A stretch of DNA of 40,040 nt from a virus (lineage: Duplodnaviria > Heunggongvirae > Uroviricota > Caudoviricetes), in the IMG/VR virus record IMGVR_UViG_2547132278_000009. One strand, given 5' to 3'. Positions 3,295-38,140 of this stretch are shown here, in pieces. The notes under the pieces were generated by a model. It did no database searches and was not told the origin of the DNA. It saw nothing but the letters and a program-made list of their open reading frames with translations. Within the stretch, counting starts at the first letter, position 1, and each line of letters starts with the position of its first letter. The translations under genes were made by a program, and so were the position numbers.

Positions 3295-3985
3295 ATCGCG
3301 TAGCTCCAATAAACCCGCCAAAATGGATCACTCCGTTGGCAAAATAATTCCGACGCGCATTACAGGCGTCATAACGTTTTGTGCAGTAATCAGCACCAGA
3401 CATAGACGTCTGCTGGTTATTTTTGTCGAAATATGGACCGGTATAGCCGCATTCTGGCCCTCGGTATTTCCACGGGCAGGTGTTTTTAATGATCTGACGA
3501 TACGGCAGTTGCACCCCCATCAAATCGAACACACTGGACAACTCAAACTCGACAACCTGATGAGTTTCGAGCGTTTTCTGTTCGATAAACCACATTTCAT
3601 CCGGGAAATGTTGGTTTGGATCTGCTGTTGGATTACCGTCTTTAAAATTAACGGCATCGAGGAAGCGAGCCAGCGTCATCTTGCGAATAATGCGGCAGCC
3701 AACAAGATCGTCGTTCGCCTGAACTTCCGCAGAGACGGTTCCGGCAAAGTTCGATACCTGAATTTTTGGACGTGGCAACGTTCCCTGGCCAGTTTTGTCA
3801 AAGCCTGATGCTTTGATTGGCCACGGCTCGTATGTCACTCCTTGCCAGACGACCGGTTGCATCAGTTCGTTTGTTCCGGCGTGGAAGAATAGCTTCCCCC
3901 CTGAAGTTGTGTTCGACATATCCAGTACGAACAACTCAATGAGTGCAGAGGGAGATAAGCTCTGAATATCAGCTTTAATTCCCAT
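3287..3985 (-). CDS. Minor tail protein L
   Basis: Strong similarity to lambda gpL (WQG..Y.P.PI, RFLDAVNF, NTCPW.YRG.ECGY.GP, FGGF); start chosen at MGIKADIQ by spacing to the WQG motif. Confidence 0.85.
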   Translation of the reverse strand: MGIKADIQSLSPSALIELFVLDMSNTTSGGKLFFHAGTNELMQPVVWQGVTYEPWPIKASGFDKTGQGTLPRPKIQVSNFAGTVSAEVQANDDLVGCRIIRKMTLARFLDAVNFKDGNPTADPNQHFPDEMWFIEQKTLETHQVVEFELSSVFDLMGVQLPYRQIIKNTCPWKYRGPECGYTGPYFDKNNQQTSMSGADYCTKRYDACNARRNYFANGVIHFGGFIGATRYG

Positions 3986-4067
3986 TGTTTCATCCTTGAA
4001 ATAAGTAGGCGCTAACATCCTGTCAGCGCCACAATGATAGTAAATTAGTACTTACTTATCCAGATAC

Positions 4068-4403
4068 TTAAGCCTCAAATACTTGTCTGAATGTAGCAGT
4101 TAAGACACAGTACCCCTGATATCGCTTGACCGTATGACTGTCACATACAACTACAATCCGTTTTCCTCTTGGATTAACCCAATAGAACGACTCAACGCCT
4201 GCTCGCTCAGTCAGGAAGTCATCGATTGCATTAATTTCGTTGTATGATCTGGTAAAGGTTAACGACCATTCTTCTTTAATACGATTAAGACCTTGAGCCT
4301 GTCGCTGCTCGTAGTCATCACCAAAATTAAGTACCGTGACATTCGGTTTTACGCTCTTTTCAGATTCGTAATCTGGATACCAATTAAACGTTTGTCTTTC
4401 CAT
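4068..4403 (-). CDS. Minor tail protein M
   Basis: 111 aa; FGD.Y.QR...GLN and F.W..P motifs as in lambda gpM; conserved position. Confidence 0.75.
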   Translation of the reverse strand: MERQTFNWYPDYESEKSVKPNVTVLNFGDDYEQRQAQGLNRIKEEWSLTFTRSYNEINAIDDFLTERAGVESFYWVNPRGKRIVVVCDSHTVKRYQGYCVLTATFRQVFEA

Positions 4404-4445
4404 CTCACATCCTTGTGAGACTGCCCCGGTCGGGACAGTCGATAG

Positions 4446-7400: not shown

Positions 7401-9020
7401 GCCAACTACCCCCATGATCCCTGCTCGCATCAGTTTGAACGCAACCATCGCGGCCACGACCTTACCGAGATTAATTACCAGCTCTTGGTTCTTTGCTAAC
7501 CATTGAGCAAGCTGACGCAACCCATCGATTGCCGTTGTTAACCCCGAACCTAAAGAATTGGCAAACGAAATCCCTTCGGCGCTATTCATGATTGAAGCCA
7601 GTTCTTTCATCCCCTTCGATAGAGAATCCAGATATCCGGCCTGACCAACCCGATCAGCAAATAACGTGAATGACGTCTGAAGTTGCGCCAGCGCACCTGT
7701 GTAGGTTTGCATCATGTCTTTCGCTGCGTTCTCATTCTCCGCACGCAGACCAACAAACATCAGAGACAACGCCTGTTTTGCCTCAACCGTACCGCTGGCA
7801 ACGGCTTTAGTCAGTTCCCCCATAGTGATGCCTGCGGCGTCTGCCATTGCCTGCATCGCGTTAGGAACGGCTTCACCTAATTGCTGACGTAGCTCTTCCA
7901 TTGACACAACGCCCTTACCGGACATCTGCTGAACGGCCACAGCCGCACGTTTCAACAGCTCACTATCACCACCAAAACGAGCAACGGAGTCCACCAGCGC
8001 CTTCAGAGAACCATCGGTTGGATCTAAGCCAGCAGAACGAAACTTCACGAAGGAGTCTGTTAACGCCTGCATCGCGAACGGCGCATTTTGAGCCATGTCT
8101 ACGATGTACTTCATGTCATCGGCGGCAGCCTGGCCAGGGTTGGACTTCTCCTTATTCAACCCTCGAAGCATCACCCGCATACGTTCCATTTCGGCCGCAG
8201 CTTCAACAATAGGCTTCTGCCACCCAAACATGATGTCAGTAACCGTTCTGGCTGCATCTCCGATCTCGCCAAGCAGGAAAATGTTGCCACGAAGGCCAGA
8301 GAACATACCTCCTTCGTTACTTTTACCGCTATGGCCAGAAGCGCCGCTACGCCGCCCGCTACCACCATCGCCACTTCCAGATGTACGAACGCGTACCGGC
8401 TTGCTAATCAGTTGCTGACGTCCGATAACTTCGTCCATCTGCTCACGAACCTTTTTCAGTCCCTCGGCAGCCTGACTCGTTGTGACACCCCAATTACTGA
8501 GTCGCTTCGTCGTGGTATTAAGGCGCGTATTCATGCCACTCACGGACGCAGAGGCTTCTTTGACCTCCGTACCAAAGCGGCTTGCGCTTTTGCTTGCATA
8601 GGTCGCCCAATCAGAGAAATCATTTAGCTCTGATTGCACTTTACGTAATGACGCGGTGAGTTTATCTACTGAAGAAGCTGTCGTATCGACGCGCTCAATC
8701 AGGGCTTTAAGACCAGAATTGAGGCTGGTGATGTTGCCACGCATTTTACGCGTAGCATCTGAAGCAAGCTCAAAACCGGCAGCTACATCCTGTAGTTTAT
8801 CTGCCGTAGAATCGAGCTTGCTTTCCAGAACGCCAATGATACGGGCGACCGAACCCAAAGAGCGTTCAAAGGTTTGGATTTTTTGAGCAGGCTTTGTTAC
8901 CTGCTCACCAAATCGAGTAAGCAGTTTCCCCGCACGATCGATTGACGCTGTAAACTGTTTGTCTTCCAGCGACAGGATAAACTCTACGTTTTGTGACATT
9001 CCCTTGTCATCCTCTGCCAA
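4446..9020 (-). CDS. Tail tape measure protein
   Basis: 1524-aa mostly alpha-helical/coiled-coil ORF with Gly/Ser/Thr/Ala-rich segments, located between G/GT and M as in lambda H. Confidence 0.85.
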   Translation of the reverse strand: MAEDDKGMSQNVEFILSLEDKQFTASIDRAGKLLTRFGEQVTKPAQKIQTFERSLGSVARIIGVLESKLDSTADKLQDVAAGFELASDATRKMRGNITSLNSGLKALIERVDTTASSVDKLTASLRKVQSELNDFSDWATYASKSASRFGTEVKEASASVSGMNTRLNTTTKRLSNWGVTTSQAAEGLKKVREQMDEVIGRQQLISKPVRVRTSGSGDGGSGRRSGASGHSGKSNEGGMFSGLRGNIFLLGEIGDAARTVTDIMFGWQKPIVEAAAEMERMRVMLRGLNKEKSNPGQAAADDMKYIVDMAQNAPFAMQALTDSFVKFRSAGLDPTDGSLKALVDSVARFGGDSELLKRAAVAVQQMSGKGVVSMEELRQQLGEAVPNAMQAMADAAGITMGELTKAVASGTVEAKQALSLMFVGLRAENENAAKDMMQTYTGALAQLQTSFTLFADRVGQAGYLDSLSKGMKELASIMNSAEGISFANSLGSGLTTAIDGLRQLAQWLAKNQELVINLGKVVAAMVAFKLMRAGIMGVVGAGSQMVSTFATMATAIQTPFNLGATAVTRFNRAARMGLAPIPSLIFAIRGAITGLKGAFAGLTAFIAANPIGAAFTVATVAVAGLITYMTMLRSETSKVVDEIRKIPEAMTAAKRAQMADRAEKLEKQILADQRALKTGEGVNYVSNSAGVITHKESKADIEARLKKNQEEYQKITGTIALGDGAVAKRLAKEAAESQIEKIRAENQIFAATFVKARQEALDKIQKINDDGSLSDDEKNKLLAPLRETVNKSYLEPAQKLVDSLSSRKNATEKQIATLNDQLEKAKKDGNTEQIQKLQGSIRGYQEHLEAVAQELTQAEFERDNAAKTGKGVMSNQGTVLGLGTTDKAAKKALAQYMRNQMDSATYQRTLPDGTPMMDFEGKPIIGPKQLKTQLNLQKASSASSLEKMSDEERAAAIAALTKAREQDAAAAEKAAQRSANASQRAAKKEQAAQQKLAAGYQKALDKADQLMGQMGESSKATVSFDQSLRDTTKSLTDLANAVPNEFITQEMIDKAKKRLEDLKNATPEYREMFNRRNVEQMISTWAPEADSIISAGYTPSREEKVADFEDTYNRNLKALIELRDKASDPKVVALYTKKINQLIAAGNTALIKETGTATQKLALEYENLAEQIESTWTDLFSGLTDVLTDFVINGKMSFSSLSQSILKDITNMVVKSQITLPLMNMLGMGTTAAGSSQSGNLLTGVASAVANQGVRMGNTVNGDKSVGEATKETSSSVTGLGQTTQQTTSAIGTATNAIGSWVSGLFDSTEAKDAETKAVKDSIFSMQNLSSVTGALSAAFAMLGANASGSGNKWLSFGATVASGLVSAWAGGGFDSVTSSSAKTATSSVADGTKGIPAIPKFANGGIFGKDGVIPLRAYQKGGIANSPQLALFGEGDMNEAYVPLPDGRTIPVTLSTDGMSGGGNVLSPVSIEINVHSDGSTTESGDTESIWNNAAQRMKAIALETIAQEKRPGGSLNPNTQRN

Positions 9021-9393
9021 ATATTTGCATCAGTTGCTCTTTGGCGTCAGGGTCTGCCTTATCCTGGCTTGGATCGTAGACTTTATCTGTTACGACAGGT
9101 CTTCCAATCCTGAGTTGCAAACCCTCCATGAACGCCTTCACAGCCTCGCCATCCGCCTGGGACGCACGAGCGACTTGTAAGTTGCGGACATCCTCTTCCG
9201 CACGCAGACGGTCTATATTGCGACTGAGCATCCAGAACATCGTGAGAGGAACGTTCAGTAGCTCTAATGGCGACACGGCGTAGTGAGCAACTACACGACT
9301 GAAATAGAATCCGAGATCTATTGAGACGGTCCTTGTCCCGGATTCATCGCGGGAAATTACTTTGCCCCTTCGCCAGCCGCTTTTTCGTTTTCT
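9007..9393 (-). CDS. T-like -1 frame extension of the tail assembly chaperone (G/GT pair)
   Basis: ORF 9007..9276 is in the -1 frame relative to G; by hand translation that frame stays open upstream to about 9393, overlapping the last ~12 codons of G. Confidence 0.5.
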   Translation of the reverse strand, partial: RKRKSGWRRGKVISRDESGTRTVSIDLGFYFSRVVAHYAVSPLELLNVPLTMFWMLSRNIDRLRAEEDVRNLQVARASQADGEAVKAFMEGLQLRIGRPVVTDKVYDPSQDKADPDAKEQLMQIFGRG

Positions 9394-9674
9394 TCATCAA
9401 TCACTTCCATAGCGAAGGTGAAGATCTGCTGGAGTTGCGGAACAGTCAGTTTTTCAAGAACTTCGTCAGGTACTGAAGGGATAACCTTACGAACCAGATC
9501 TGCATAAGCTGTCACTTGCTCAACAGGAGACATGTTCATGAGATCTTTGCCTTCCATCTGCTTGATGGAAACAAAGAGGCCGACGGTCATTTCAACGATG
9601 GGATATTCTTTGCCACCAAATTTGATGCTTTTTTTCGGCGGCAGAATGGAGTCGAGATCGAGTAATTTGGTCAT
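9357..9674 (-). CDS. Tail assembly chaperone G-like
   Basis: 105 aa, acidic C-terminus, immediately upstream of tape measure and overlapped by a -1 frame ORF. Confidence 0.65.
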   Translation of the reverse strand: MTKLLDLDSILPPKKSIKFGGKEYPIVEMTVGLFVSIKQMEGKDLMNMSPVEQVTAYADLVRKVIPSVPDEVLEKLTVPQLQQIFTFAMEVIDEENEKAAGEGAK

Positions 9675-9700
9675 GGTTTAAATCCTTTTAAACTCATACA

Positions 9701-9720
9701 GAGGCCCATCCATGGGCCTC
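9701..9720. other. Perfect stem-loop GAGGCCCAT-CC-ATGGGCCTC between major tail gene and chaperone gene (possible attenuator or RNA stability element)
   Basis: 9-bp inverted repeat read directly; no strong U-tract on either side. Confidence 0.4.
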
Positions 9721-9735
9721 TTGGGTTATCACAAT

Positions 9736-10482
9736 TTAGCTTGCGGCAGTTACAGAGACGGCTTTGGTCGCCTTCTTGGCACCGTCATTAGTTGTGAAGG
9801 TGATATTGGCTGAACCGACAGCTTTACCAGTTACCAGTCCGTTCTGATCTACGGTCGCTTTATCAGTCGCATCAGAGCTCCACACGCCAGTCTTATTGGT
9901 TGCATCGGCCGGGGTGAAGGTTGCGCTCAATTGAACTTTAGTGCCCACTTTTACGGTCGGTGAAGACGGGGTCAGCGTGACGCTCTCAACCGGCTTTGGG
10001 AGGCTCATTTTCCCCAACACGCCAGCGTCGTCCGGGTAAGCGGAAAACTCAACTGAGAACACGCGAACGTCGTCAGACTGGTAGGTCATGGTGAAGTTAC
10101 CCGCGGTTGCTGCTTTAGGGATGGTCAGAACATAATCCGTCGCATCCTGCGGGGTCAGCACCAACTCTTTCGCAACGTCGATCAGGTTCACTCCCTGCGC
10201 AGACGTGATGGTTACGGTATCTTCGCCAGAACTCAGCGTGGAACCTGGCATCAGATCGACCATGTTTTTCAACACGGATTCAGCCAGCGGCGCAGTAATG
10301 GTGATGTTGCGGCCCTGGATCAGCTCGGAGATCGTGGTCTGGCCCAGCTGGTCTACGGTCACTTTCAGCGTTTCGGTTGCGATTTCAACCTGAACACCAC
10401 CTTTGGTGTAACCCAAATCCACACCACCAAACGACACCTTACAGGCACCAAGTTTGATGTTTTTTACATGGGTATTAGACAT
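9736..10482 (-). CDS. Major tail protein V-like with C-terminal Ig-like (Big_2-type) domain
   Basis: ORF 9736..10518, likely start MSNTHVKN at 10482; C-terminal repeat VTLTPSSPTVKVGTKVQLSATFTPADATNKTGVWSSDATDKATVDQNGLVTG typical of Big_2 domains, as in lambda gpV. Confidence 0.75.
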   Translation of the reverse strand: MSNTHVKNIKLGACKVSFGGVDLGYTKGGVQVEIATETLKVTVDQLGQTTISELIQGRNITITAPLAESVLKNMVDLMPGSTLSSGEDTVTITSAQGVNLIDVAKELVLTPQDATDYVLTIPKAATAGNFTMTYQSDDVRVFSVEFSAYPDDAGVLGKMSLPKPVESVTLTPSSPTVKVGTKVQLSATFTPADATNKTGVWSSDATDKATVDQNGLVTGKAVGSANITFTTNDGAKKATKAVSVTAAS

Positions 10483-10556
10483 TGATGGAAAACTCCTTTT
10501 TCCGTTAATTCTACGCATTCATTGCGCTAATAGTAAGTATATACTTACCAATTGAG

Positions 10557-10913
10557 TTAATTCAATAAATAGCCAGCAAATTCAACAGGAATGCCTGCTT
10601 CTATTAATGCCCCATCATTTTTGGGATAAATGATTGGCATCGCCATCGGTCGCACCAGTCGAAAATAAACACCACCAGATTCCGTTTCCTCTACTGGAAA
10701 CATCTCAATGATTTTATTGGCTTTCTCAACCGTCGTAGTAATTGACGAACCACGCACAATTATTGTGAATGATTCGTGGTAAAAGCCCTGTAGCTCATGA
10801 TCGATGCTGATACCGGTATTTGGGTTAATAAGCAGGACGCCAGATTTCACATTGGCAGGCAAGTAGTGACAGAAAATGTCAGTCCCGACCGTGCCAATCT
10901 TTGCCTTCTGCAT
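10557..10913 (-). CDS. Tail component, U-like position (tail terminator candidate)
   Basis: Position between V and the head-tail joining genes; start chosen at internal MQKAKIG to avoid overlap with the upstream gene; no motif recognised. Confidence 0.4.
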   Translation of the reverse strand: MQKAKIGTVGTDIFCHYLPANVKSGVLLINPNTGISIDHELQGFYHESFTIIVRGSSITTTVEKANKIIEMFPVEETESGGVYFRLVRPMAMPIIYPKNDGALIEAGIPVEFAGYLLN

Positions 10914-10941
10914 CAAACTTGCAAACGCTTCAATAAACACA

Positions 10942-11415
10942 TTAACCTCTCGTAAAACCGGCTTTTCTGGCAGCCTCAAGAATCGCTTCTGAGAACTGCT
11001 TCTCGCTAATTTCCACCGCTCTTTCCAGAAAGTGTGGCCCAACACGAGGTTTAACACCGGCAATTGGTGGGTTTGTCACGTTCTTCATTCGAGAAAGATA
11101 ACCGAGTCGGTATTTACCCAGCTCCATGTACTTAGCATAGTCACCGACTTCTACGCCCGGATGCCCCTGACGTGGTTTTGCTCCAGACACAGAAAGCTCA
11201 ATGCGCAGCCCTGAATAACCTTCTTTAATCACCCTGGCAAAGATGGCTGTCTCCAGAGATCCGGTTTCCAGCGGGGCCATTGCACGGCTGAGACGCTCAA
11301 CCAAACGCGCCAGCTTTTCCATGTCCCGAATAAGATATCGCTTAAATGCTTTCTGGCTGTTGTTGAGTCGATTCCCCGCACGTTTGAACTGATGCGCATC
11401 GTATTTCAGACCCAT
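10942..11415 (-). CDS. Tail completion / head-tail joining protein (Z-like position)
   Basis: 157-aa ORF in the conserved slot; assignment by synteny only. Confidence 0.4.
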   Translation of the reverse strand: MGLKYDAHQFKRAGNRLNNSQKAFKRYLIRDMEKLARLVERLSRAMAPLETGSLETAIFARVIKEGYSGLRIELSVSGAKPRQGHPGVEVGDYAKYMELGKYRLGYLSRMKNVTNPPIAGVKPRVGPHFLERAVEISEKQFSEAILEAARKAGFTRG

Positions 11416-19474: not shown

Positions 19475-19517
19475 AAAACAACTTGTTTACTGCATCTGCT
19501 AACCAACTTGTTTTCTG
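19475..19517 (-). promoter_or_regulatory. Two copies of the palindromic operator family (AAAACAA-N-TTGTTT) upstream of the terminase small subunit gene
   Basis: AAAACAACTTGTTTAC (19475-19490) and AACCAACTTGTTTTCTG (19501-19517), with adjacent inverted repeat AGAGCGC-N6-GCGCTCT. Confidence 0.45.
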
Positions 19518-27986: not shown

Positions 27987-28099
27987 GCCGTTTCCCGAAA
28001 AAATCCTGGCCGTTTCCCGTCGGCTCATGAATACGTTCCTCGCCGTTTCTGAAAATTTCCCTGCGGCAGCTGGTGTCTATAGAGAAAGGGCCGTTTCTG
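27987..28099. repeat. Iteron-like direct repeat array A (GCCGTTTCC/GCCGTTTCTG, 4 copies)
   Basis: GCCGTTTCCC at 27987 and 28009 (22 bp apart), GCCGTTTCTG at 28042 and 28090. Confidence 0.6.
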
Positions 28100-28112: not shown

Positions 28113-28595
28113 TTACACGCCATCAAGGATGTGGATGCGGTTGCTTGCGTATACATTCAGCATAAAGTTAGCGCAAAACAGTTTCCATGTATCAACGCCA
28201 GCGGCATACGTAATGTTTTTGCATTTTATTGCATTGTTGGCGATCCGCATCCCCTGTGATACTGCTTCATCGTCGGAAAATTTGAACGACGATTGAGTTT
28301 TAATCCAGACAGAAATCTGCGTAGCGAACTCAATCAGCTTGGACTGGCAGAATCGCCCGGAGCGCACCGGAAAGACGAACGTTCCGAATCCAGAATTTAC
28401 CACATACGCTTTCTCAAATACCCGCGAGTAACGACGATTGCCAATGATGTCGCGTGCAATAATGCATTTTTCTTGTGCTGACAGTTCTACCGTCTCATTG
28501 TCGCGCCATGCACCAAGTACTCGTTTTTCAATGTCAGAGAACGTTACAGCGATATTGCCATGTGCGGGTGCGTTTACAGTAGCGATAAAATTCAT
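28113..28595 (-). CDS. Hypothetical protein (160 aa)
   Basis: ORF with GGAAT RBS-like and the palindromic operator 20-40 bp upstream; no motif recognised. Confidence 0.5.
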   Translation of the reverse strand: MNFIATVNAPAHGNIAVTFSDIEKRVLGAWRDNETVELSAQEKCIIARDIIGNRRYSRVFEKAYVVNSGFGTFVFPVRSGRFCQSKLIEFATQISVWIKTQSSFKFSDDEAVSQGMRIANNAIKCKNITYAAGVDTWKLFCANFMLNVYASNRIHILDGV

Positions 28596-28612
28596 GATTA
28601 ATTCCTTATCGT

Positions 28613-28632
28613 AAATAACAAATTGTTTTCTT
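28613..28632 (-). promoter_or_regulatory. Palindromic operator copy (AACAAATTGTT core) upstream of the 160-aa gene
   Basis: AATAACAAATTGTTTTCTTG read directly; flanking TTAATTAACACCAACAAG block is shared with the site at 31143. Confidence 0.45.
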
Positions 28633-28797
28633 GTTGGTGTTAATTATCGTTGTACGAATAAGGCGTCAAAGTGGAAAGTTGCGGTAGCCGGACGGGAACA
28701 GGTGGGTTTGTCGGTTGCCTGGAGGTAAGAGGTTGGTGTTATTAGCCTGAGGGAAACAGGATGGTCATTTAAGACCACCAATGCTGGTGGCCTTAAT

Positions 28798-28943
28798 AAT
28801 TATCGCACGATTACGCTAAGGATCTTTTCCTCAACTGATTTGTTGTTGCGACTAAACTGCCTTGCGTATCTGATGACAGAAGAGGCGTTTTGCTTTCTGA
28901 CCATCTCGGCTCTTTCCTTCAGGCGTTTCTTGAAATCGCCCAT
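28798..28943 (-). CDS. Possible small basic protein (48 aa), below the ORF-track cutoff
   Basis: Hand translation MGDFKKRLKERAEMVRKQNASSVIRYARQFSRNNKSVEEKILSVIVR; ATG 2 nt after the upstream stop with GGTGG upstream. Confidence 0.3.
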
Positions 28944-28945
28944 AT

Positions 28946-29320
28946 TTACCACCAGGCGCAGAAGGTCAGTCTGTTATTGTGAAAGTCGTGGTTCTTAATC
29001 AGGTCTTCCACAAGCTCTTTCAACTGCCCCACATCATGCCAGTAACCTTCATCGTACTCCTGACTGCCGAAGAAAAAACCTTCCCGGGTAGGCAAGTACT
29101 CTTCGCAATTACTTTCGTTTATGTGCATCAAATGAGCCTTCAGAAAACAAATGTCATTCATCGTTAATTCTAAAAGCTCACAATTTTCGACTTCACCTAC
29201 GTTGCGCTCCATCCACCCAACGAGCGCATTGAACTTACGGAAGTAAGCAACCTGCTTTCTGGATGCCTCGTTATTCAGATCGTTTTTAGGCTGTGTCTCG
29301 ATATAGATATCAAGTCCCAT
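28946..29320 (-). CDS. Hypothetical acidic protein (about 124 aa)
   Basis: ORF 28946..29362; probable start MGLDIYIETQ; operator copy and hairpin upstream. Confidence 0.5.
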   Translation of the reverse strand: MGLDIYIETQPKNDLNNEASRKQVAYFRKFNALVGWMERNVGEVENCELLELTMNDICFLKAHLMHINESNCEEYLPTREGFFFGSQEYDEGYWHDVGQLKELVEDLIKNHDFHNNRLTFCAWW

Positions 29321-29375
29321 GATGGTTTCCTTATTAACTTGCTTCAGTGAAATCATTTTCACAAATCAGATAAGG

Positions 29376-29395
29376 CAGAAAACAAATTGTTATCG
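29376..29395 (-). promoter_or_regulatory. Palindromic operator copy upstream of the acidic 124-aa gene
   Basis: CAGAAAACAAATTGTTATCG; adjacent hairpin GGCGCG-N6-GCGCC likely terminator of the upstream gene. Confidence 0.45.
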
Positions 29396-29437
29396 GGCTT
29401 AATAAAATGGCGCGGTTTACGCGCCATTTAAAGAGGA

Positions 29438-29833
29438 TTAAGCGAATACGCTTTCAGGGATTAAGGTGTCGGCAGGAATGCCAGAGGTAATGCGCAGGCC
29501 GTACTGACCAATCCAGGTAGTGTTGGTATTCAGGCTGGAGGCGAATACGGTGTTAACCATATTCATCATGGTTTCAAACACCTCTTCATCAACCTGGCGG
29601 AAGTAGTTCTCGATTTTCAGCAGCAGCGGGTCAGTTGCATCGAGAATGGACTGGTATTGAGTCGCGTACTCGCCGCCGGAGGCATCACCTTTACGCACGA
29701 TCGTACTGGCCTGGACTTCGGCACCAGTTTCGGTGTTGTACGTAACAACGGTGATTTTTGCCACATTCTTACCTTCGGCGGTTTCAGAGGCATAGTAAAC
29801 ATCAACTGTCAGTTTTTCGCGTTTAACGGTCAT
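29438..29833 (-). CDS. Hypothetical protein (131 aa)
   Basis: ORF with GGAGAGTG RBS-like sequence upstream; no motif recognised. Confidence 0.5.
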   Translation of the reverse strand: MTVKREKLTVDVYYASETAEGKNVAKITVVTYNTETGAEVQASTIVRKGDASGGEYATQYQSILDATDPLLLKIENYFRQVDEEVFETMMNMVNTVFASSLNTNTTWIGQYGLRITSGIPADTLIPESVFA

Positions 29834-29959
29834 TTCACTCTCCGTAGTGTATTGGTTATTTTTCTATTCTATGATCGTAAGTATGTACTTACAATACAAA
29901 AAAGCCCCGTAAGGATGGCGGGGCTGTCGTACTGTCGACTAATTGCCACTTGCACATTA

Positions 29960-30271
29960 TCAGGCTATTGCCATCACTGATGCTCTCTGAATCTCTTGCT
30001 GGGCCACGCGGTTAACTTCCATCAAAGCCAGTTCGAGCTGATGTTCCGGCCACATTCTTTGAAATGCCACCCAGCCTTTTCCACGCTGGCGACGAACATT
30101 CATTACATAACGAGTAAAGGTGTTTTTATCGAAAGACACCGCTGTTTCACGGAACAGACGAATAGAGGTTCCATTGGCAACGATGTCCAGCAAAGTTAAT
30201 TGAGCAACCAGCGCAGGCTTCTCTTTTCTCTTCTGGTCTTTGTCCAGACCAAGAACCAATGATTTTTTCAT
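29960..30271 (-). CDS. Hypothetical basic protein (103 aa), possible DNA-binding protein
   Basis: ORF 29960..30301; start MKKSLVLG at 30271 with GGAG RBS; K/R-rich. Confidence 0.5.
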   Translation of the reverse strand: MKKSLVLGLDKDQKRKEKPALVAQLTLLDIVANGTSIRLFRETAVSFDKNTFTRYVMNVRRQRGKGWVAFQRMWPEHQLELALMEVNRVAQQEIQRASVMAIA

Positions 30272-30280
30272 TACAACTCC

Positions 30281-30299
30281 GTAAACAACTTGTTTTCTC
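30281..30299 (-). promoter_or_regulatory. Palindromic operator copy (GAAAACAA-G-TTGTTTAC) in the 5' leader of the basic-protein gene
   Basis: Read directly; lies within a ~60-bp module duplicated at 30765-30840. Confidence 0.5.
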
Positions 30300-30424
30300 A
30301 ATGGCGTAAATAATACCAGTAAGAAAACGGCTACAAAGCATATTGATCAGGCGCATGAGCGATATGCAGGTTCTTCCCTGCGGCTATAGAGAAATTAAGC
30401 CAGCAATGCTGGCTTTGGTTGGGG

Positions 30425-30754
30425 TTACTCGAATACTTCAAGAAACTCCTGAACGTCCCAATGCTGGACAAGGTGAAGATAGACCTTAGAAATAACGTCA
30501 TTCTCGCTATCGCATGTGAAGTAGAACTTCTGGCTGCGGTTGTATGTGTCCACACAAAATTCGCTCATATCCATAAAGTCAGCATCATCACCCAGGTCGC
30601 AAATCATCAAAGCAGGAGCATCATCACGAGTCATCAGCTCAAGCACCCAGCGCGAATTGATCAGCGTGGAAGACCAACCTTCTAACTCATAAAACTGGTC
30701 AAACTCTTTTTGAGTCATTTTCTTGATTTGGTTGATGTCGATATTTGCAAACAT
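30425..30754 (-). CDS. Hypothetical acidic protein (about 109 aa)
   Basis: ORF 30425..30820; start MFANIDINQ at 30754 with AAGGAT RBS; net acidic, D/E-rich. Confidence 0.5.
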   Translation of the reverse strand: MFANIDINQIKKMTQKEFDQFYELEGWSSTLINSRWVLELMTRDDAPALMICDLGDDADFMDMSEFCVDTYNRSQKFYFTCDSENDVISKVYLHLVQHWDVQEFLEVFE

Positions 30755-30764
30755 AACGCAATCC

Positions 30765-30783
30765 TTAAACATGTTGTTTTCTG
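30765..30783 (-). promoter_or_regulatory. Palindromic operator copy (GAAAACAA-C-ATGTTTAA) upstream of the acidic 109-aa gene
   Basis: Read directly; part of duplicated promoter module. Confidence 0.5.
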
Positions 30784-30892
30784 AATTGCGTAAACAATAC
30801 CAGTAAGAAAACGGCCACAAAGTATATCGTTACGGTGCTGCGCTGCCCGGAGGTTAATAGCGACAAAAGCCACCGTGCTGGTGGCCTCACTC

Positions 30893-31111
30893 TTAATCTT
30901 CGTCGCCCGGGAACTCGCTGTGTACCGCGTCCACCAGCTCCCGCTTTTCATCTTCACTCAGCAGGTGCCAGATATCCTTCCCTTTGGGCGATTCCCCTTC
31001 TGCCGGGACGAACGACCACAACTTGCGGTACAACTCCGGCCCCACTGCATCCAGACACTCAGCCAGGGATTCCACGCCCCACACCTCAACCGTCACAGGC
31101 ATCTTAATCAT
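30893..31111 (-). CDS. Hypothetical small acidic protein (72 aa)
   Basis: ORF with GAGGATGAAGAG RBS-like leader; acidic C-terminus EFPGDED. Confidence 0.45.
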   Translation of the reverse strand: MIKMPVTVEVWGVESLAECLDAVGPELYRKLWSFVPAEGESPKGKDIWHLLSEDEKRELVDAVHSEFPGDED

Positions 31112-31142
31112 CTCTTCATCCTCACTTCGTTTATATAACGTC

Positions 31143-31159
31143 TAAACATGTTGTTTACT
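31143..31159 (-). promoter_or_regulatory. Palindromic operator copy upstream of the 72-aa gene
   Basis: TAAACATGTTGTTTACT with the same flanking TTAATAACACCAACAAG block as the site at 28613. Confidence 0.45.
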
Positions 31160-31491
31160 TGTTGGTGTTATTAACGCAATAAGACAAAGGCGAAAAAGGA
31201 TTTTATTCCGGTGAATGTGGTTTTGGCAGTGAGTTTTCAGGTTCAGTACCGAGTACACTTTTTACATTATTCTGATTTAGTGGCCGAAAGTGGCTGGTGG
31301 CAGAGTAATCCTCTCCCCAAAAACCTACTGAAATCGATTGTGCCCCGTTGGCTGTCTGGCACAATTACGCTGTAGCTGGGCATTCAGAGGGAATCCAGCG
31401 GTAAGCAAGCCCGCCTACGTGAGCGCCTCTCTTCTTCCCGCACATTACAGGTGGGTAGCCGCAACTCTCCCTCTCGCTATACCGGTACGCC

Positions 31492-31622
31492 GCCGTTCCT
31501 GAACCGGCATCGAGCCTTTTCCCGAAATCCACACAGGCAACTCGACCGTTTCCCTGAAAATCCCCAGCCGTTCCCCGAAGGCAACCCAGCCGTTTCTGTA
31601 GCGGGATGCAACCTTTTCCCTG
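31492..31622. repeat. Iteron-like direct repeat array B (6 copies of G/A-CCGTTTCC-type units at about 22-bp spacing)
   Basis: Units begin at about 31492, 31514, 31545, 31567, 31589, 31610; several followed by GAAA. Confidence 0.65.
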
Positions 31623-31699
31623 TATGGACCGAAGACTGACCGTAGGGGTGTTACGGGGGGATAAAATCAGGAGTTGAATAAATACGAAAAAGGAGGCGA

Positions 31700-32600
31700 C
31701 ACCCCTCCTTCCCTCCCCACTTATACATACCTGGCTTCTTCGCTATACATGTTGTGTTTTATCTGTCTCAACCTCTCTATAGGCGTTAATGCTCACTCCT
31801 TCCAGAATGTTCTATACGGCGACTATTTCTGTTGGTGAATTGGGTGTGTTGTTTTCTCTGTCGGTGTATGTGGTTTCGTTCGTTTTGCGGTGGTTCTTCT
31901 ATGGGGTGTTCTCGTCGTTTTGGTGATTGTTCTTCTCCGTGTATGGAGTAATGGCAGGTGGGCGATTGCTTTCGTTATTGTGTTTGAGTTGTTTGTCTGG
32001 AGTGTGTGAAAGGCTTTTGTAGTTATTCGTGTATTGGGTAATGGCGTTTCCCGTGATTGTTATGTTTCGTGTCTTTTGGGATTGAGAGAAACCTTGCGGT
32101 TATAGGCTTCGTTGGGTTTTCAGTGATTCTGGTGTTTCTTCGCTGTTTGGGGAATGGCGTGTCGTGGGTATTGCGCGTATGAATGTTTTCGGATTGCCTG
32201 TGAAAGTTAGGTTGGCTGTCCGGTAGCCTGGGGAGAAGAGGTGGGTCTTTTCGGTAGCCTGCCATAAAGAGGTTGGTTGTTTTTGGGAATGGCATTTGTG
32301 TTATTTAGTTGTTTTGTTATGCCTGAAAATAAGTTGTTTATATGGTTGTGTAACGCAACGGGAGCGATTTTGAGCGTGTGTTTTTGTTGGTAGTGTGTTG
32401 GGTCGTCTGTGGTGAAAATTGGACGCTGTGGCGCTGTCTGCTGCGTAGAATTACGGGTATAAGAAGTGATGTGTGAAAACGTCAATTTTTTAGACCAAAT
32501 CGGGTGAAAGCGTTGATGTTTCGTTGATCTGTTATTCAGTTGTTTTCTTGATTGTATAAACAACTATAACTTATTGATATTTAAGGATGTGATTGCGGGT
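31700..32600. other. About 0.9 kb ORF-free tract with extreme G+T richness on the plus strand
   Basis: Long runs of G/T-only words; recurring GG(G/T)AATGGC units near 31951, 32037, 32143, 32287; only low-complexity ORFs. Confidence 0.6.
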
Positions 32601-32682
32601 ATGGAAAGGGAGTAGTGGCGATCAACGGATTCTTATAGAAAAGAATCAAATTGTGACCGCCATTATCAATGAGTTGCAACCG

Positions 32683-33252
32683 TTAGTTGTTCAGATAAAC
32701 ATTTGGAACACGGACGTAGAAGTTCCTGTCGCCGGTAAGTTCCAGAGTAATGTTAATGTCATTACCATTGTCTAGTGTAGCCGTTGCTCTATAGAACTTA
32801 TCCGTCACCTTGTCCTCTATTGTCACCTTCATACATTTTGGTGCAGTCGAACCGTTATTCTCTTTCAGAATAGTTGTCACGAGAGGGCAGGCTGCTTCTT
32901 CAAGAGCAACCTCGTCCTTGTGTGGGATGCCGATGAAGATAATCCAAGCCAGCGACGCAACGATTATGATAAATGGCACTCTGCTGCCTTTTGTAATAGT
33001 CGCGCGCTTCCAGAGATAGACAGGCAGGAGGAATACCCCCCATAGAATTGAAGGTGGTTCACAGCCAGACTCCGATAGAGCCATTCTGTCAGCTACTAAC
33101 AAACCGATGGTAGTTACACCCCCAATTATAATAGCGTAATTGGTATACTCTTCCGGCGATACTCCAAAGAAGAAAGGCATGAACGCTAGAATCCACGCAT
33201 AAATGTTATTCAGAGGTTTTGTTTGTTGGTTCTGGGTTTCCATCACATCCAT
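32683..33252 (-). CDS. Membrane protein (about 3-4 predicted transmembrane helices plus C-terminal soluble domain)
   Basis: 189 aa; hydrophobic segments IYAWILAFMPFFFG, AIIIGGVTTIGLLV, ILWGVFLLPVYLW, FIIIVASLAWIIFIGI. Confidence 0.55.
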   Translation of the reverse strand: MDVMETQNQQTKPLNNIYAWILAFMPFFFGVSPEEYTNYAIIIGGVTTIGLLVADRMALSESGCEPPSILWGVFLLPVYLWKRATITKGSRVPFIIIVASLAWIIFIGIPHKDEVALEEAACPLVTTILKENNGSTAPKCMKVTIEDKVTDKFYRATATLDNGNDINITLELTGDRNFYVRVPNVYLNN

Positions 33253-33404
33253 TCCATCACATAAAAATCGCGTTTATATATTATCAATTTTCTCACTTGT
33301 ATAACCTAAATACGCATCCGTTTATCAATTCACCTTCCACAAACATCAGCTTTAGCTATGAAAAATAACAATCTCAAAGTGAAAACCATTATCATAGGAA
33401 ACGA

Positions 33405-33590
33405 TTAGATGAGATGGTCTAATTCATCATCTATCATTGCTTTAACACTTGAGTCATTAACCCCGTATTGATTTATGAACCGTTTCAGCTCCGGTGAAAA
33501 CTGAAGGTAGATATCGTGAGCGTTTTTCACTGTAGGTTCAACGCCACGCATTTCAAGCGCCTTTAGTAGATATGAGTCTTCTTTAAGCAT
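33405..33590 (-). CDS. Hypothetical small protein (61 aa)
   Basis: ORF downstream of the 102-aa gene, likely co-transcribed. Confidence 0.4.
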   Translation of the reverse strand: MLKEDSYLLKALEMRGVEPTVKNAHDIYLQFSPELKRFINQYGVNDSSVKAMIDDELDHLI

Positions 33591-34087: not shown

Positions 34088-36121
34088 TTACTTAACCTGA
34101 TGGCCTGGTTTAGCACCGGCATCCGGGCTTAACAGGAAGATATCTTTCCCGCCGGGGCCAGCAGCCATCACCATGCCTTCAGAGATACCGAAGCGCATTT
34201 TACGCGGAGCCAGGTTAGCCACCATAATGGTGTGACGACCAATCAGTGCCTGTGGATCTGGATAAGCGGAACGGATGCCTGAGAAGACATTACGCTTTTC
34301 ACCACCGAGATCCAGCGTCAGGCGCAGCAGTTTGTCAGAACCTTCGACAAACTCCGCGTTTTCAATCAGCGCCACACGCAGGTCAACTTTGGCGAAGTCG
34401 TCAAAGGTGATGGTTTCCTGAATCGGGTCGTCAGCCAGTGGGCCAGTTACCGGTGCAGCTGTGGCTTTCACTTCTTCTTTGGATGCTTCCACCAGTGCTT
34501 CCACCTGTTTCATATCGATACGGTTATACAGTGCCTTGAACGGATTCACTTTATGGCCCAGCAGCGGTTGCTGGATACCATCCCAGGTCAGTTCTGTATT
34601 CAGGAATGCTTCTGCACGTTCAGTCAGTTTCGGCAGTACCGGTTTCAGGTACGTCATCAGCACGCGGAACAGGTTAATGCCCATAGAGCAAATCGCCTGC
34701 AGATCGGCATCGCGTCCTTCCTGCTTCGCCACCACCCACGGAGCCTGTTCATCGACATAGCGGTTAGCCAGATCAGCCAGCGCCATGATTTCACGAATCG
34801 CTTTACCAAATTCGCGGCTTTCCCATGCTTCACCAATCACTTCAGCGGCATCAGTAAAGGTTTTGTACAGTTGCGGGTCAGCCAGTTCGCCTGCCAGCAC
34901 ACCGTCAAAACGCTTATTGATAAAGCCCGCGTTACGGGACGCCAGATTCACCACTTTGTTCACGATATCGGCATTCACGCGCTGAACGAAATCCTCCAGG
35001 TTGAGATCGATATCATCAATGCGCGAAGAGAGTTTCGCAGTGTAGTAGTAACGCAGGCTGTCAGCGTCAAAATGATTCAGCCAGGTGCTGGCTTTAATAA
35101 AGGTGCCGCGAGACTTGGACATCTTCGCACCGTTCACCGTCACATAGCCATGAACAAACAGGTTGGTCGGCTTGCGGAAGTTGCTGCCTTCCAGCATGGC
35201 AGGCCAGAACAGGCTGTGGAAGTAAACGATATCTTTACCGATGAAGTGGTACAGCTCGGCGGTGGAGTCTTTCTTCCAGTATTCGTCGAAGCTGGTAGTG
35301 TCGCCGCGTTTGTCGCACAGATTCTTGAAGGAACCCATGTAGCCAATCGGTGCGTCCAGCCAGACGTAGAAATATTTGCCCGGTGCGTTCGGAATTTCAA
35401 AACCGAAGTACGGCGCATCGCGGGAGATATCCCACTGTTGCAGGCCAGATTCAAACCACTCCTGCATTTTGTTTGCCACCTGCTCCTGCAACGCACCGCT
35501 GCGGGTCCATGCCTGCAACATTTCGCTGAAAGAGGGCAGATCAAAGAAGAAGTGTTCGGAATCACGCATTACCGGCGTAGCACCAGAAACTACCGATTTC
35601 GGCTCGATCAGTTCAGTCGGGCTGTAAGTCGCGCCGCAGACTTCACAGTTATCGCCGTATTGATCTGGCGCTTTACATTTAGGACAGGTGCCTTTTACAA
35701 AACGGTCCGGCAGGAACATGCCTTTTTCCGGGTCGTACAACTGAGAGATAGTGCGGTTTTTAATAAAACCGTTCTCTTTCAGGCGAGTATAGATAAGCTC
35801 AGACAACTGACGGTTCTCTTCGCTGTGCGTCGAGTGATAGTTGTCATAGCTGATGTTAAAGCCTGCGAAATCAGTCTGATGTTCCTGACTCATTTCGCCA
35901 ATCATCTGCTCCGGTGTGATACCAAGCTGCTGTGCTTTCAGCATGATCGGCGTACCGTGGGCATCGTCGGCACAGATGAAATTAACCTCGTGGCCGCGCA
36001 TTCGCTGGTAACGAACCCAGACATCAGCCTGGATGTGCTCCAGCATATGGCCGAGGTGGATTGAGCCGTTAGCGTACGGCAGCGCGCACGTCACCAGAAT
36101 TTTCTTCGCGACTTGGGTCAT
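34088..36121 (-). CDS. metG: Methionyl-tRNA synthetase
   Basis: Near-identity to E. coli MetG as I recall it (start [36 protein letters not shown] motif present); ORF-track N-terminal extension discarded. Confidence 0.97.
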
Positions 36122-36278
36122 AGTAGGCATTACTTCTTTGTAGTGAAAAGGGGCTTGATAGTAACAAAATGGCCTTATGTCTGCCATGTGATAACAGCAT
36201 TTCTCATAAATGATTAAATGTCGTAGCTGGAGTACACTACAAGGCGACAATTGCGCAAATTAAAATAAAGGAGACGGG

Positions 36279-37379
36279 ATGAGCGAGTCCAAATCGCCGG
36301 ATGCCCTGAGAGCAATGGTAGCCGGTACGCTGGCTAATTTTCAGCACCCAACCCTGAAACACAACCTGACTACGCTTAAAGCGTTACACCATGTTGCGTT
36401 GATGGATGACACACTGCATGTCGAACTAATCATGCCTTTCGTGTGGAATAAGCCTTTTGAAGACCTGAAAGAGCAATGTAGTGGTGATCTGCTCCGTATC
36501 ACTGGCGCAAAGGCTATTGACTGGAAGCTGTCGTACAACATTGCCACGCTTAAGCGTGTCAAAAACCAACCAGGCATTAATGGCGTTAAGAACATTATCG
36601 CCGTCAGCTCAGGCAAGGGCGGCGTGGGTAAATCCTCCACGGCGGTAAACCTGGCACTGGCGTTGGCTGCTGAAGGTGCGAAAGTTGGTATTTTGGATGC
36701 CGATATCTATGGTCCATCAATTCCAACCATGCTGGGCGCGGAAAACCAACGTCCAACCTCACCTGACGGTACTCACATGGCACCTATCATGTCTCATGGC
36801 CTGGCAACCAACTCTATTGGTTATCTGGTCACCGACGACAATGCAATGGTGTGGCGTGGACCGATGGCCAGCAAGGCGCTGATGCAGATGTTGCAGGAAA
36901 CTCTATGGCCTGATCTGGACTATCTTGTTCTCGATATGCCGCCGGGCACTGGTGATATTCAGTTGACGCTGGCGCAGAACATTCCTGTAACTGGTGCTGT
37001 TGTGGTAACTACGCCGCAAGACATCGCGCTGATCGATGCGAAGAAAGGCATTGTGATGTTCGAAAAAGTCGAAGTGCCGGTACTGGGTATCGTCGAAAAC
37101 ATGAGTGTGCATATTTGCAGTAACTGCGGTCATCACGAGCCAATTTTCGGCACCGGTGGCGCAGAGAAACTGGCCGAGAAATACAACACGCAGTTGTTAG
37201 GCCAAATGCCACTTCATATCTCACTTCGTGAAGATCTGGATAACGGAACACCAACCGTTATTAGTCGTCCAGATAGCGAATTTACGGCTATTTATCGTGA
37301 CCTCGCAGATCGCGTTGCTGCCCAAATGTATTGGCAAGGTGAAGTAATACCTGGCGAAATCGCATTCCGCGCAGTGTGA
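36279..37379 (+). CDS. mrp: Mrp/ApbC iron-sulfur cluster carrier ATPase
   Basis: Near-identity to E. coli Mrp as I recall it (P-loop SGKGGVGKSS, CSNCGHHE motif); divergent from metG. Confidence 0.95.
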   Translation: MSESKSPDALRAMVAGTLANFQHPTLKHNLTTLKALHHVALMDDTLHVELIMPFVWNKPFEDLKEQCSGDLLRITGAKAIDWKLSYNIATLKRVKNQPGINGVKNIIAVSSGKGGVGKSSTAVNLALALAAEGAKVGILDADIYGPSIPTMLGAENQRPTSPDGTHMAPIMSHGLATNSIGYLVTDDNAMVWRGPMASKALMQMLQETLWPDLDYLVLDMPPGTGDIQLTLAQNIPVTGAVVVTTPQDIALIDAKKGIVMFEKVEVPVLGIVENMSVHICSNCGHHEPIFGTGGAEKLAEKYNTQLLGQMPLHISLREDLDNGTPTVISRPDSEFTAIYRDLADRVAAQMYWQGEVIPGEIAFRAV

Positions 37380-37416: not shown

Positions 37417-37806
37417 CTACATCACGGGACAATCATCAAACTCGCCACTTCTTGCGTCGTTGATAATGTGAGTGATCACACCAAACACGGCATTGCTGCC
37501 CGTGCATCCATCGTCATCCTTTGGCAATGCTTCCTTCTTACCGGTTCTTAAATCCTCCAGATGCTGACGTGGATACTTCCGGTATCTTTTTACGCGATAT
37601 TCCCCATCCAGAGCGCATACAAGCAGAGAACCATCAACCGGGGTAAGTGAGGAATCGACCACCAGCAATGCACCCTGTAATATTCCCTCACGATGATGAC
37701 TATCAGCTGCCCTCATGAAGTAGGTCGCTGAAGGATGTCTAATTATCTGCTGATCAAGAGAAATACGGCTCTCAGCATAATCCGCCGCAGGAGAAGGGAA
37801 GCCCAT
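37417..37806 (-). CDS. UmuD-like S24 peptidase-family protein, without an adjacent umuC
   Basis: 129 aa; GFPSPAADY..., HPSATYF and GVITH match E. coli UmuD; Ser and Lys of the S24 dyad appear present (DSH..., VKR). Confidence 0.8.
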   Translation of the reverse strand: MGFPSPAADYAESRISLDQQIIRHPSATYFMRAADSHHREGILQGALLVVDSSLTPVDGSLLVCALDGEYRVKRYRKYPRQHLEDLRTGKKEALPKDDDGCTGSNAVFGVITHIINDARSGEFDDCPVM

Positions 37807-37822
37807 AATACTCGCCTCTTAA

Positions 37823-37842
37823 TACTGTATACACATACAGTA
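37823..37842. promoter_or_regulatory. LexA (SOS) box
   Basis: TACTGTATACACATACAGTA, i.e. CTGT-N8-ACAG, 17 bp upstream of the UmuD-like start codon. Confidence 0.85.
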
Positions 37843-38140
37843 TATATTGAAGCTATATATTTTTGAACTCTATCTCTTAAAAAAGATGTTAATAAGATGC
37901 TAACTATTGAAAGGCATAAATATATACAATTCAAACAAACGTTATTTTTAACAAATTTTTTCTTCCCATTGACTTTTTCGAACGCCTTGTCCGGTCTAAA
38001 GTGCGCAGAAGTCACTTTTTCCTTCCTGAGTTATCCACAGGCTTATGCACTTGCATGAAAAATCTATTCACACTATCTTAATTCGCAAGACACTGATGTT
38101 GCAGTATTGAGGGTATGTTGGGTTAAAAATAGACATTAAA

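Follow-up and report, generated by a model that had tools for sequence, protein, structure and literature searches.

A conserved, strand-asymmetric noncoding tract in SSU5/pHCM2-type phage-plasmids and its possible role as a Rho-dependent insulator

Between the accessory genes and the early phage genes of an Escherichia coli phage-plasmid lies a gene-free gap of 1.57 kb (31112-32682), which contains a tract with a strongly G/T-biased plus strand. The gap is part of a 40,040-nucleotide stretch of DNA, IMG/VR record IMGVR_UViG_2547132278_000009, which we call the window and to which all positions refer. In E. coli genomes, the 1.6-kb region around the tract matches only plasmids of ~110 kb, never chromosomes, and it also matches phages; as judged from such matches, the window belongs to an SSU5/pHCM2-type phage-plasmid, whose repA is of the IncFIB type, and it holds no integrated prophage. 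The replicon measures ~109 to 110 kb, and the minus strand of the window carries nearly all genes. To the left, the gap is bordered by a minus-strand early gene for a 72-aa protein (30893-31111), and to the right by a minus-strand cargo gene for a 189-aa membrane protein (32683-33252). It is conserved as a unit in SSU5/pHCM2-type phage-plasmids, and its homologs carry no PGAP annotation. An earlier, sequence-only reading of this DNA had placed the tract in a prophage and thought of a lysogen as its setting; the relation to phages stands, and the integrated prophage does not, the tract being plasmid-borne in every matching E. coli genome, with no chromosomal copies.

The extreme G+T strand bias that had been reported for 31700-32600 is borne out by the counts. 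The plus strand of this interval holds 358 T, 260 G, 152 A, and 131 C (G+T = 0.686), and G+T peaks at 0.773 in 300 nt (from 31841) and at 0.754 in 500 nt, against a window mean of 0.499 (standard deviation, 0.037 to 0.043; z = 6.3 to 6.8). In sliding frames of 100 nt, G+T is at least 0.70 from ~31800 to 32400, and the core of the tract was set at 31790-32400 (32% G, 41% T, 14% A, and 12% C on the plus strand, with G+T at 73 to 77%); we read the core as an element of the minus strand. The first ~90 nt of the interval as originally marked (31700-31790) are C/T-rich, not G/T-rich. The skew is exceptional on the scale of the replicon as well: in a composite of all ~109 kb, the tract is the sole outlier, at a z score of 7.1 to 7.9, and the next peak reaches 2.9. 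The tract also inverts the replicon-wide sign of the GC skew, in that minus-strand transcripts elsewhere have more G than C, whereas the minus-strand RNA of 31730-32440 (710 nt) would contain 41% A, 31% C, 14% G, and 14% U, the C/A-rich, G-poor transcript that the sequence-only reading had foreseen. The longest C>G run of the window (31793-32566) extends over 674 consecutive 100-nt frames versus 146 for the runner-up.

Neither a protein nor a folded RNA appears to account for this composition. Open reading frames (ORFs) are frequent in the tract only because stop codons are rare in such a composition; they are of low complexity, as had been noted, and PGAP annotates none of them. A coding gene on either strand was rejected, the ORFs being compositional artifacts whose frame, start, and length vary between homologs. 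The minus-strand RNA (771 nt) has a predicted minimum free energy of -121 kcal/mol, most of the pairing being that of a terminal hairpin, and it is nearly structure-free because C and A, its main bases, do not pair with each other or with themselves. Shuffled versions of the plus-strand RNA fold better than the RNA itself (z = +1.7), which shows no sign of selected structure, and an Rfam covariance search of 30500-33500 returned, at E <= 1, a chance microRNA match outside the tract and nothing else. The suggestion of a structured noncoding RNA thus finds no support.

For comparison, homologs were gathered from annotated plasmids and phages and from a scan of public contigs with a conserved 27-mer, giving 28 non-redundant sequences at 50 to 98% identity to the window. 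All 28 keep the bias, with a maximum 500-nt G+T of 0.67 to 0.75, and the composition is stable across them (G, 0.29 to 0.32; T, 0.33 to 0.41; A, 0.14 to 0.18; C, 0.12 to 0.20). In pairs at 57 to 70% identity, the mismatched and inserted columns are still G/T-rich. Polymorphisms among 16 close relatives, polarized with outgroups, run against the bias: 16 changes go from G or T to A or C and 7 go in the reverse direction (small counts). The polarized changes (6 T>C and 7 G>A versus 4 C>T and 1 A>G) show no C-to-T or A-to-G excess, and a skew driven by mutation of an exposed single strand was rejected on this ground. Since all 28 lineages retain the bias, inserted segments show it too, and recent polymorphisms erode it, selection on composition is, from these alignments, a more likely cause of the skew than mutation pressure. 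The claim that the asymmetry is not that of neutral intergenic DNA and belongs to a functional noncoding element therefore holds: the tract is unique in the replicon, is conserved at 57 to 70% identity, and is biased in its inserted segments too.

The tract is conserved across the SSU5/pHCM2 family. The gap has homologs in 838 PLSDB plasmids from Klebsiella, Escherichia, Enterobacter, Salmonella, Citrobacter, and Cronobacter, and 12 phage records match it, among them Cyrano, CMS-2020a, PhiR41_1, SSU5, and several Klebsiella phage-plasmids. In E. coli, the 1.6-kb region around the tract was found at 253 places in 244 genomes, in plasmids only, with a median of one per genome. A known repeat family, such as an insertion sequence (IS) or a repetitive extragenic palindromic element, had been considered as a trivial explanation; that or any other dispersed repeat was rejected, there being no chromosomal copy and no transposase-like ORF.

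Embedded in the biased DNA is a repeated motif. GGKAATGGC occurs exactly three times in 40 kb, always within the tract (32037, 32150, and 32285), where 0.63 would be expected and 3 of 100 shuffles reach three; a fourth, variant copy, GAGTAATGGC, lies at 31946. With spacings of 90, 113, and 135 bp, the copies agree with the recurrence of GG(G/T)AATGGC at roughly 90 to 140 bp that had been seen by eye. In each of the 28 homologs, no 8-mer is repeated more often than the core GTAATGGC (92 exact copies, all on one strand), which makes it no chance feature, and it is near-absent from the remainder of the replicon. It is invariant inside a semiconserved unit of ~28 nt, GTTCTTCTCCGTGTATkGrGTAATGGCr, present in 3 to 5 copies of one orientation; unit positions are conserved within lineages, and copy number varies between them. 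Across homologs the spacings range from 41 to 143 bp and are neither periodic nor helically phased. In the window, the plus-strand units are TTGTTCTTCTCCGTGTATGGAGTAATGGC (31927-31955; core at 31948-31955), TTGTAGTTATTCGTGTATTGGGTAATGGC (32017-32045; core at 32038-32045), TTCTTCGCTGTTTGGGGAATGGC (32136-32158; core GGAATGGC at 32151-32158), and TTTTGGGAATGGC (32281-32293; core at 32286-32293). A tandem or CRISPR-like array was rejected, Tandem Repeats Finder having returned nothing in the tract and the spacings being irregular.

There are, in addition, internal duplications of three families (D1, D3, and D5), and GTAGCCTG is repeated in 25 of the 28 homologs. A tandem 31-nt duplication on the plus strand (32216-32277) has CGGTAGCCTG in each copy (32221-32230 and 32252-32261). 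The consensus of the RfaH-recruiting ops element is GGCGGTAGnnTG, and CGGTAGCCTG agrees with it at 10 of 12 positions; these are the only two matches in the window, and 14 of 100 shuffles give two in 40 kb. The match is of doubtful significance because nearly all homologs are without plus-strand genes downstream.

At the right end of the gap, ~21 nt past the stop codon of the cargo gene, stands a conserved two-tier hairpin of the minus strand, R1 (32616-32662). In all homologs R1 directly follows the variable cargo, and its inner stem differs between lineages and nevertheless pairs. Six of 8 variants of R1 fold more stably when read as minus-strand RNA, and the G-U pairs of the hairpin work only on that strand; from this pattern we propose that R1 would act as a protective 3'-end structure of the cargo mRNA. 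No intrinsic terminator was found between the cargo or upstream stop codon and the tract, either in the window or in Cyrano. The right-hand neighbor is a minus-strand cargo gene in nearly all of the 16 homologs with enough flanking sequence; the exception is a Klebsiella lineage (L010) with a plus-strand DUF262 gene at that position.

Published RNA sequencing of a Cyrano lysogen bears on what happens to transcripts here (PMC9928086, S1 table; values given as log2[FPKM+5], where FPKM is fragments per kilobase per million). CYRAN_102, directly upstream of the tract, reaches ~45 to 590 FPKM; CYRAN_103, an ORF annotated ~110 nt farther on, within the right part of the tract, has 0 FPKM in lysogeny broth (LB) and at most ~14 under other conditions; CYRAN_104, over the iterons described below, has 1 to 20 FPKM; and the genes to the left rise to ~200 FPKM in some conditions (PMC9928086). 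By these values, the tract is silent in lysogens, and upstream transcripts appear to vanish as they enter it. Lysogen transcriptomes had been proposed as a check on the tract, and these data do show a drop there, in counts that are possibly not strand-specific; a long noncoding RNA constitutively expressed in the lysogen is contradicted by the 0 FPKM in LB.

What could such a tract be doing? The textbook substrate of Rho is RNA that is C-rich, G-poor, unstructured, and untranslated, and the minus-strand RNA of the tract resembles a Rho utilization (rut) region in each respect: it is C-rich and G-poor over at least ~80 nt, has little structure, and is untranslated. We posit, tentatively and as a leading candidate that falls short of probable, that the tract is a Rho-loading and termination insulator between accessory genes and phage early genes. 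In this model, leftward (minus-strand) transcripts would leave the variable accessory island (the 189-aa membrane protein gene, metG, and others) and run into the tract; the ribosome would halt at the cargo-gene stop codon; R1 would then shield the 3' end of the mRNA; and Rho would load on the naked C-rich RNA and release RNA polymerase before it reached the iterons and the operator-controlled early operon (28113-31111). The early phage genes would thereby be insulated from constitutive cargo transcription in the lysogen, whichever cargo sits upstream. What we infer is that Rho is involved, that the tract insulates, and that the repeated units, which would read GCCAUUAC(C/U)C in the RNA, have a part in this; they may be preferred contacts of Rho or of an accessory factor. 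This reading is the best supported because of the gene orientation, the long C>G run, the unstructured RNA, the position of R1 after the cargo, the lack of an intrinsic terminator, and the drop in RNA. Among the options that the sequence-only reading offered, the Rho-dependent one fits best.

Several observations weigh against Rho-dependent insulation. At ~600 nt, the tract far exceeds the length that a rut site needs, and a purely compositional terminator leaves the invariant GTAATGGC units, GTAGCCTG, and the operator block described below unexplained. The drop in RNA falls at most ~110 nt past the stop codon, ahead of the main tract, so that the Rho model has to assume either that 3' ends are trimmed as far back as R1 or that termination takes place within the initial C-rich 100 nt. 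The possible lack of strand specificity in the published counts also matters here, as does the fact that the Cyrano cargo gene is not the same as that of the window. A silent region, finally, fits a DNA-level element equally well.

Could the tract, then, be a DNA-level part of an origin? To its left, adjoining the skewed DNA and not inside it, are six iteron-like repeats of the plus strand, GCC(G/T)TT(T/C)C(C/T), which we call GCCGTTTCC-type (31492-31620; start-to-start distances of 22, 31, 22, 22, and 22 bp). A second cluster of four copies (27987-28098, plus strand) lies at the far end of the early operon, so that the two clusters, ~3.5 kb apart, bracket its six genes. The motif is almost confined to these clusters in ~110 kb; both are kept in SSU5 and Cyrano, and 31492-31620 is also kept in Klebsiella lineages. 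A similar box, GCC(G/T)TTTYC, occurs in the opposite orientation in the -35 region of several early promoters. Phasing of 22 bp is typical of origin iterons. In such a scheme, a putative initiator would bind the bipartite GCCGTTTCC clusters of a lytic origin, and the asymmetric tract with its GTAATGGC units would serve as an unwinding, helicase-loading, or priming zone, possibly with a primer transcript processed by the element's own RNase HI. The phasing of the direct repeats and their restriction to two conserved clusters speak for this, as does the nature of the tract, a single-copy locus with repeated motifs that is silent in the lysogen. So do the replication genes of the phage-plasmid: it encodes a DNA polymerase III alpha subunit, a DnaB-like helicase, primase, ligase, RecA, RNase HI, and a UvsW-like helicase, and no lytic initiator or lytic origin is annotated on it.

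We nonetheless consider a lytic origin unlikely. At ~55% A+T, the tract lacks an AT-rich unwinding element, and AT-rich 40-mers are limited to 32543-32595 within the gap; the gap also holds no DnaA-box cluster, just one box with one mismatch. A better combination of DnaA boxes and AT-rich DNA occurs elsewhere, at 37.8 to 38.1 kb: the noncoding segment 37827-38072 (~59% A+T) has DnaA-box-like 9-mers, of which the one at 38031, TTATCCACA, is perfect and others lie at 38043 and 38064, and is by these motifs a candidate alternative origin or DnaA-regulated site. The plus strand is only 32% G, below the level usually deemed R-loop-prone, and a plus-strand RNA would be U-rich. Polymorphisms lack the C-to-T and A-to-G excess expected of an often single-stranded plus strand. 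A global replication-skew turning point at the tract was rejected, the cumulative skews being monotonic. There is no adjacent initiator gene, ten neighboring proteins being without an informative Pfam or PHROG match, and the plasmid's own RepB-family repA, ~33 kb from the tract, has no GCCGTTTCC-type repeats nearby.

Beyond mechanisms already described, the tract might represent a new phage regulatory element, whether the unwinding or priming module of an undescribed bipartite, iteron-flanked lytic origin or a repressor-controlled C/A decoy RNA of ~600 to 750 nt, kept free of structure by selection, that through its repeated units titrates Rho, in effect an RNA-based antitermination, or soaks up Hfq or small RNAs (sRNAs); such novelty we regard as distinctly unlikely. 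The decoy deserves a fuller account, in which an early, operator-controlled noncoding RNA would start leftward at ~32340 or ~32455, would run for ~600 to 750 nt as a C/A-rich, unstructured transcript with 3 to 5 GCCAUUAC(C/U)C units, would end at 31687-31713, and would titrate, e.g., Rho, Hfq, or G/U-rich sRNA seeds. The operator in question is the palindrome AAACAAnTTGTTT, which, with up to 2 mismatches allowed, has 28 copies in the replicon where 5.7 would be expected. Some 15 to 18 copies follow a -10-like hexamer at constant spacing, have an invariant T 14 nt before the palindrome, and precede a ribosome-binding site and a minus-strand start codon; at ~20 early promoters, the palindrome lies ~8 nt downstream of the predicted start and is usually preceded by AGA. 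The sites in the window are at 19476, 19501, 28616, 29380, 30283, 30767, 31144, 32327, 33940, and 33991, and ~15 more are found in two further sequences of our set (L012/L013). From this arrangement we read AAACAAnTTGTTT as the probable operator through which a regulator would control early promoters throughout the replicon, in the manner of C1 and its scattered sites in P1; a candidate for this regulator is the HTH protein encoded beside the integrase.

One copy (32327-32339) falls inside the tract, within a highly conserved block (32320-32375). This copy favors a decoy RNA, as does a promoter-like site, TTGACG-N18-TATACC at ~32455, conserved in 26 of the 28 homologs. At the downstream (left) end of the tract, a minus-strand homopurine/homopyrimidine hairpin followed by a T run (31687-31713) would close the unit; silence in the lysogen fits control by a repressor, and a repeated conserved motif recalls the architecture of sponge RNAs. 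Yet the copy in the tract lacks the canonical geometry (no preceding AGA, and a -10 that is misplaced or absent in this lineage), and both candidate promoters have poor -10 hexamers. The terminal hairpin resembles a terminator in E. coli and Klebsiella lineages, whereas that of the SSU5 lineage is weak; 84% of its cells are paired, and its covariation is weak (29 G-U versus 12 A-C) and hard to read because homopurine/homopyrimidine arms pair in several registers. The expression data, moreover, cover lysogens only. GGA is not enriched, which counts against a CsrA sponge, and that candidate was rejected. In sum, we judge a decoy RNA improbable.

A promoter scan of the gap gave conserved candidates on both strands, all with weak -10 hexamers, and did not settle the direction of transcription; one, on the plus strand near 31363, is present in 20 of the 28 homologs. 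The most conserved block of the gap (32455-32560) has inverted TTGAC hexamers, TTGACG on the minus strand (32485-32480) and TTGATG on the plus strand (32513-32518; elsewhere in the family TTGACA/T); these may represent two weak promoters placed back to back or protein sites of the GTTGAC type.

Alternatively, the units might be an array of sites for a DNA-binding protein, with a role in silencing or bounding the early operon, in partition, or in nucleoid organization, and the skew would then be a by-product of duplicating a G/T-rich unit. The invariant GTAATGGC within a 28-nt unit, in 3 to 5 copies of one orientation at lineage-conserved positions, would suit such an array, as would the visible duplications D1, D3, and D5 with their lineage-variable copy number, the ParB-like genes in the window, and the neighboring iterons. 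But the bias lies mostly outside the units, new or diverged columns being G/T-rich as well; the spacings (41 to 143 bp) are irregular and unphased; no candidate binding protein was identified; and the motif is near-absent from the rest of the replicon. We rate this reading as low as the decoy RNA. That the tract has no present function, and is a relic in decay or the outcome of biased mutation or sequence drift, is very improbable: its low identity between lineages (57 to 70%), its frequent indels, and an IS3-type transposase ORF tolerated in the left part of the gap in one homolog (L024, IMGVR_UViG_2617270940_000004, alignment columns 641-1194) are outweighed by a bias kept in every lineage of six genera despite ~40% divergence in a size-limited phage genome, by invariant motifs, and by an outlier status of z = 7 to 8 with no mutational drive toward G/T.

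The surroundings of the gap fit a junction between conserved and exchangeable DNA. On the conserved side is the six-gene early operon (28113-31111, minus strand), whose products fall in PHROGs of no known function; relatives of the 72-aa protein are confined to the SSU5/pHCM2 family, at identities of at least 60% and mostly at least 69%. In three family members, a small additional gene on the plus strand separates the early-operon promoter from the iterons (SSU5_110, 6132-6374 in L003; 1630-1872 in L007; 1631-1969 in L008), which means that this part of the gap tolerates gene gain. On the other side, metG for methionyl-tRNA synthetase (34088-36250, minus strand) and apbC/mrp (36279-37379, plus strand) are full-length and host-like; they are cargo of the phage-plasmid rather than the chromosomal flanks of a prophage. 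The apbC homolog stands 9-fold above local background in the Cyrano lysogen. By far the top Cyrano gene there is CYRAN_43, a "hypothetical protein" outside the window (OV696614.1, 40268-40822) at ~3,000 to 11,000 FPKM, 723-fold above local background, which is possibly an abundant noncoding or immunity RNA.

Part of the tract has also traveled. A segment that comprises the right half of the tract, a DUF262 gene, and a type I restriction-modification system (4717-6836 in L011, the 227-kb Klebsiella IncFIB/IncHI1B plasmid NZ_CP085732.1; 2275-4409 in L010) has passed, at 96.7% identity, from a Klebsiella SSU5-like phage-plasmid to large non-phage plasmids, with a breakpoint within the tract; an independent occurrence of the tract in large Klebsiella plasmids was rejected in favor of this recombinant segment.

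Other features of the window concern recombination and the SOS response. Shuffles lead one to expect 1.1 Chi sites (GCTGGTGG) in 40 kb, and the window has 13, one of them (31293) inside the noncoding gap, an enrichment that suggests adaptation to a host with an E. coli-like RecBCD. Chi acts in one orientation only. The site at 31293 is oriented such that the tract would be degraded instead of receiving RecA, and Chi is enriched throughout the window rather than in the tract; a Chi cluster or RecA-loading island was rejected. A 61-aa acidic protein encoded at 33405-33590 (minus strand) weakly resembles, below threshold, the RecBCD inhibitors of the T7 gp5.9 family (PF25708, E = 0.006). At 37824-37843, a perfect LexA (SOS) box, TACTGTATACACATACAGTA, lies directly upstream of a gene for an S24-family (LexA/UmuD-like) peptidase (37417-37806, minus strand), consistent with the published induction of Cyrano by ciprofloxacin.

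Why should an unannotated kilobase matter? Among clinical Escherichia, Klebsiella, Salmonella, and Enterobacter, phage-plasmids of the SSU5/pHCM2 type are widespread. Phage-plasmids carry resistance genes and other cargo (PMC9600943). The tract sits exactly between a variable cargo hotspot and conserved, operator-controlled early genes. If it were a generic Rho insulator, it would explain how cargo can be swapped freely without disturbing lysogeny, and it would constitute a portable, orientation-specific insulator; if it belonged to a lytic origin, it would locate an origin so far unmapped for the family. A literature search on origins, iterons, transcriptomes, or Rho in SSU5/pHCM2 elements found no description of the tract region, no curated family matches it, and the elements defined here (the tract, the R1 hairpin, two iteron clusters, and an operator of ~20 sites) come from a wholly unannotated region.

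Each of these features has partial counterparts among known systems. With the RfaH ops/JUMPStart element the tract shares two tandem CGGTAGCCTG copies on the plus strand that match the ops core CGGTAGnnTG, with GGTAGC present twice; it differs in that the first two ops positions mismatch and most family members have no plus-strand genes downstream. AgvB, the sponge against GcvB, and the C/A-rich targets of GcvB offer a parallel in a C/A-rich, phage-borne RNA that could pair with G/U-rich sRNA seeds, although the putative RNA of the tract would be ten times longer and is silent in the lysogen. With the R-loops of ColE1 RNA II and of T4 oriF/oriG, it has in common a long noncoding region by putative origin repeats and an element that encodes RNase HI and a UvsW-like helicase; in contrast, its would-be non-template strand is only 32% G with few G clusters, and it has neither a strong conserved inward promoter nor a conserved RNA structure. 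The bipartite ori/crr of satellite phage P4 likewise pairs 22-bp-phased direct repeats, in two clusters ~3.5 kb apart, with a unique noncoding region, whereas in the phage-plasmid, in contrast to P4 and iteron origins, there is no known initiator gene, AT-rich unwinding element, or DnaA box set, and the repeats are unlike any near repA. A last counterpart is formed by rut regions such as lambda tR1 and the terminators in untranslated, horizontally acquired DNA: like them, the tract would yield a C-rich, G-poor, unstructured, untranslated RNA after a same-strand gene, has no intrinsic terminator, and loses the RNA signal downstream, and its stable upstream hairpin could mark a processed 3' end. 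It departs from them in its length (~600 to 770 nt rather than ~80 to 100 nt), in the conservation of its composition across genera, in its embedded invariant GCCAUUAC repeats, and in its operator-like palindrome. If Rho-dependent insulation is indeed its function, the tract would stand for a known mechanism in an unusual form, conserved and extended in length, at a hotspot for cargo.

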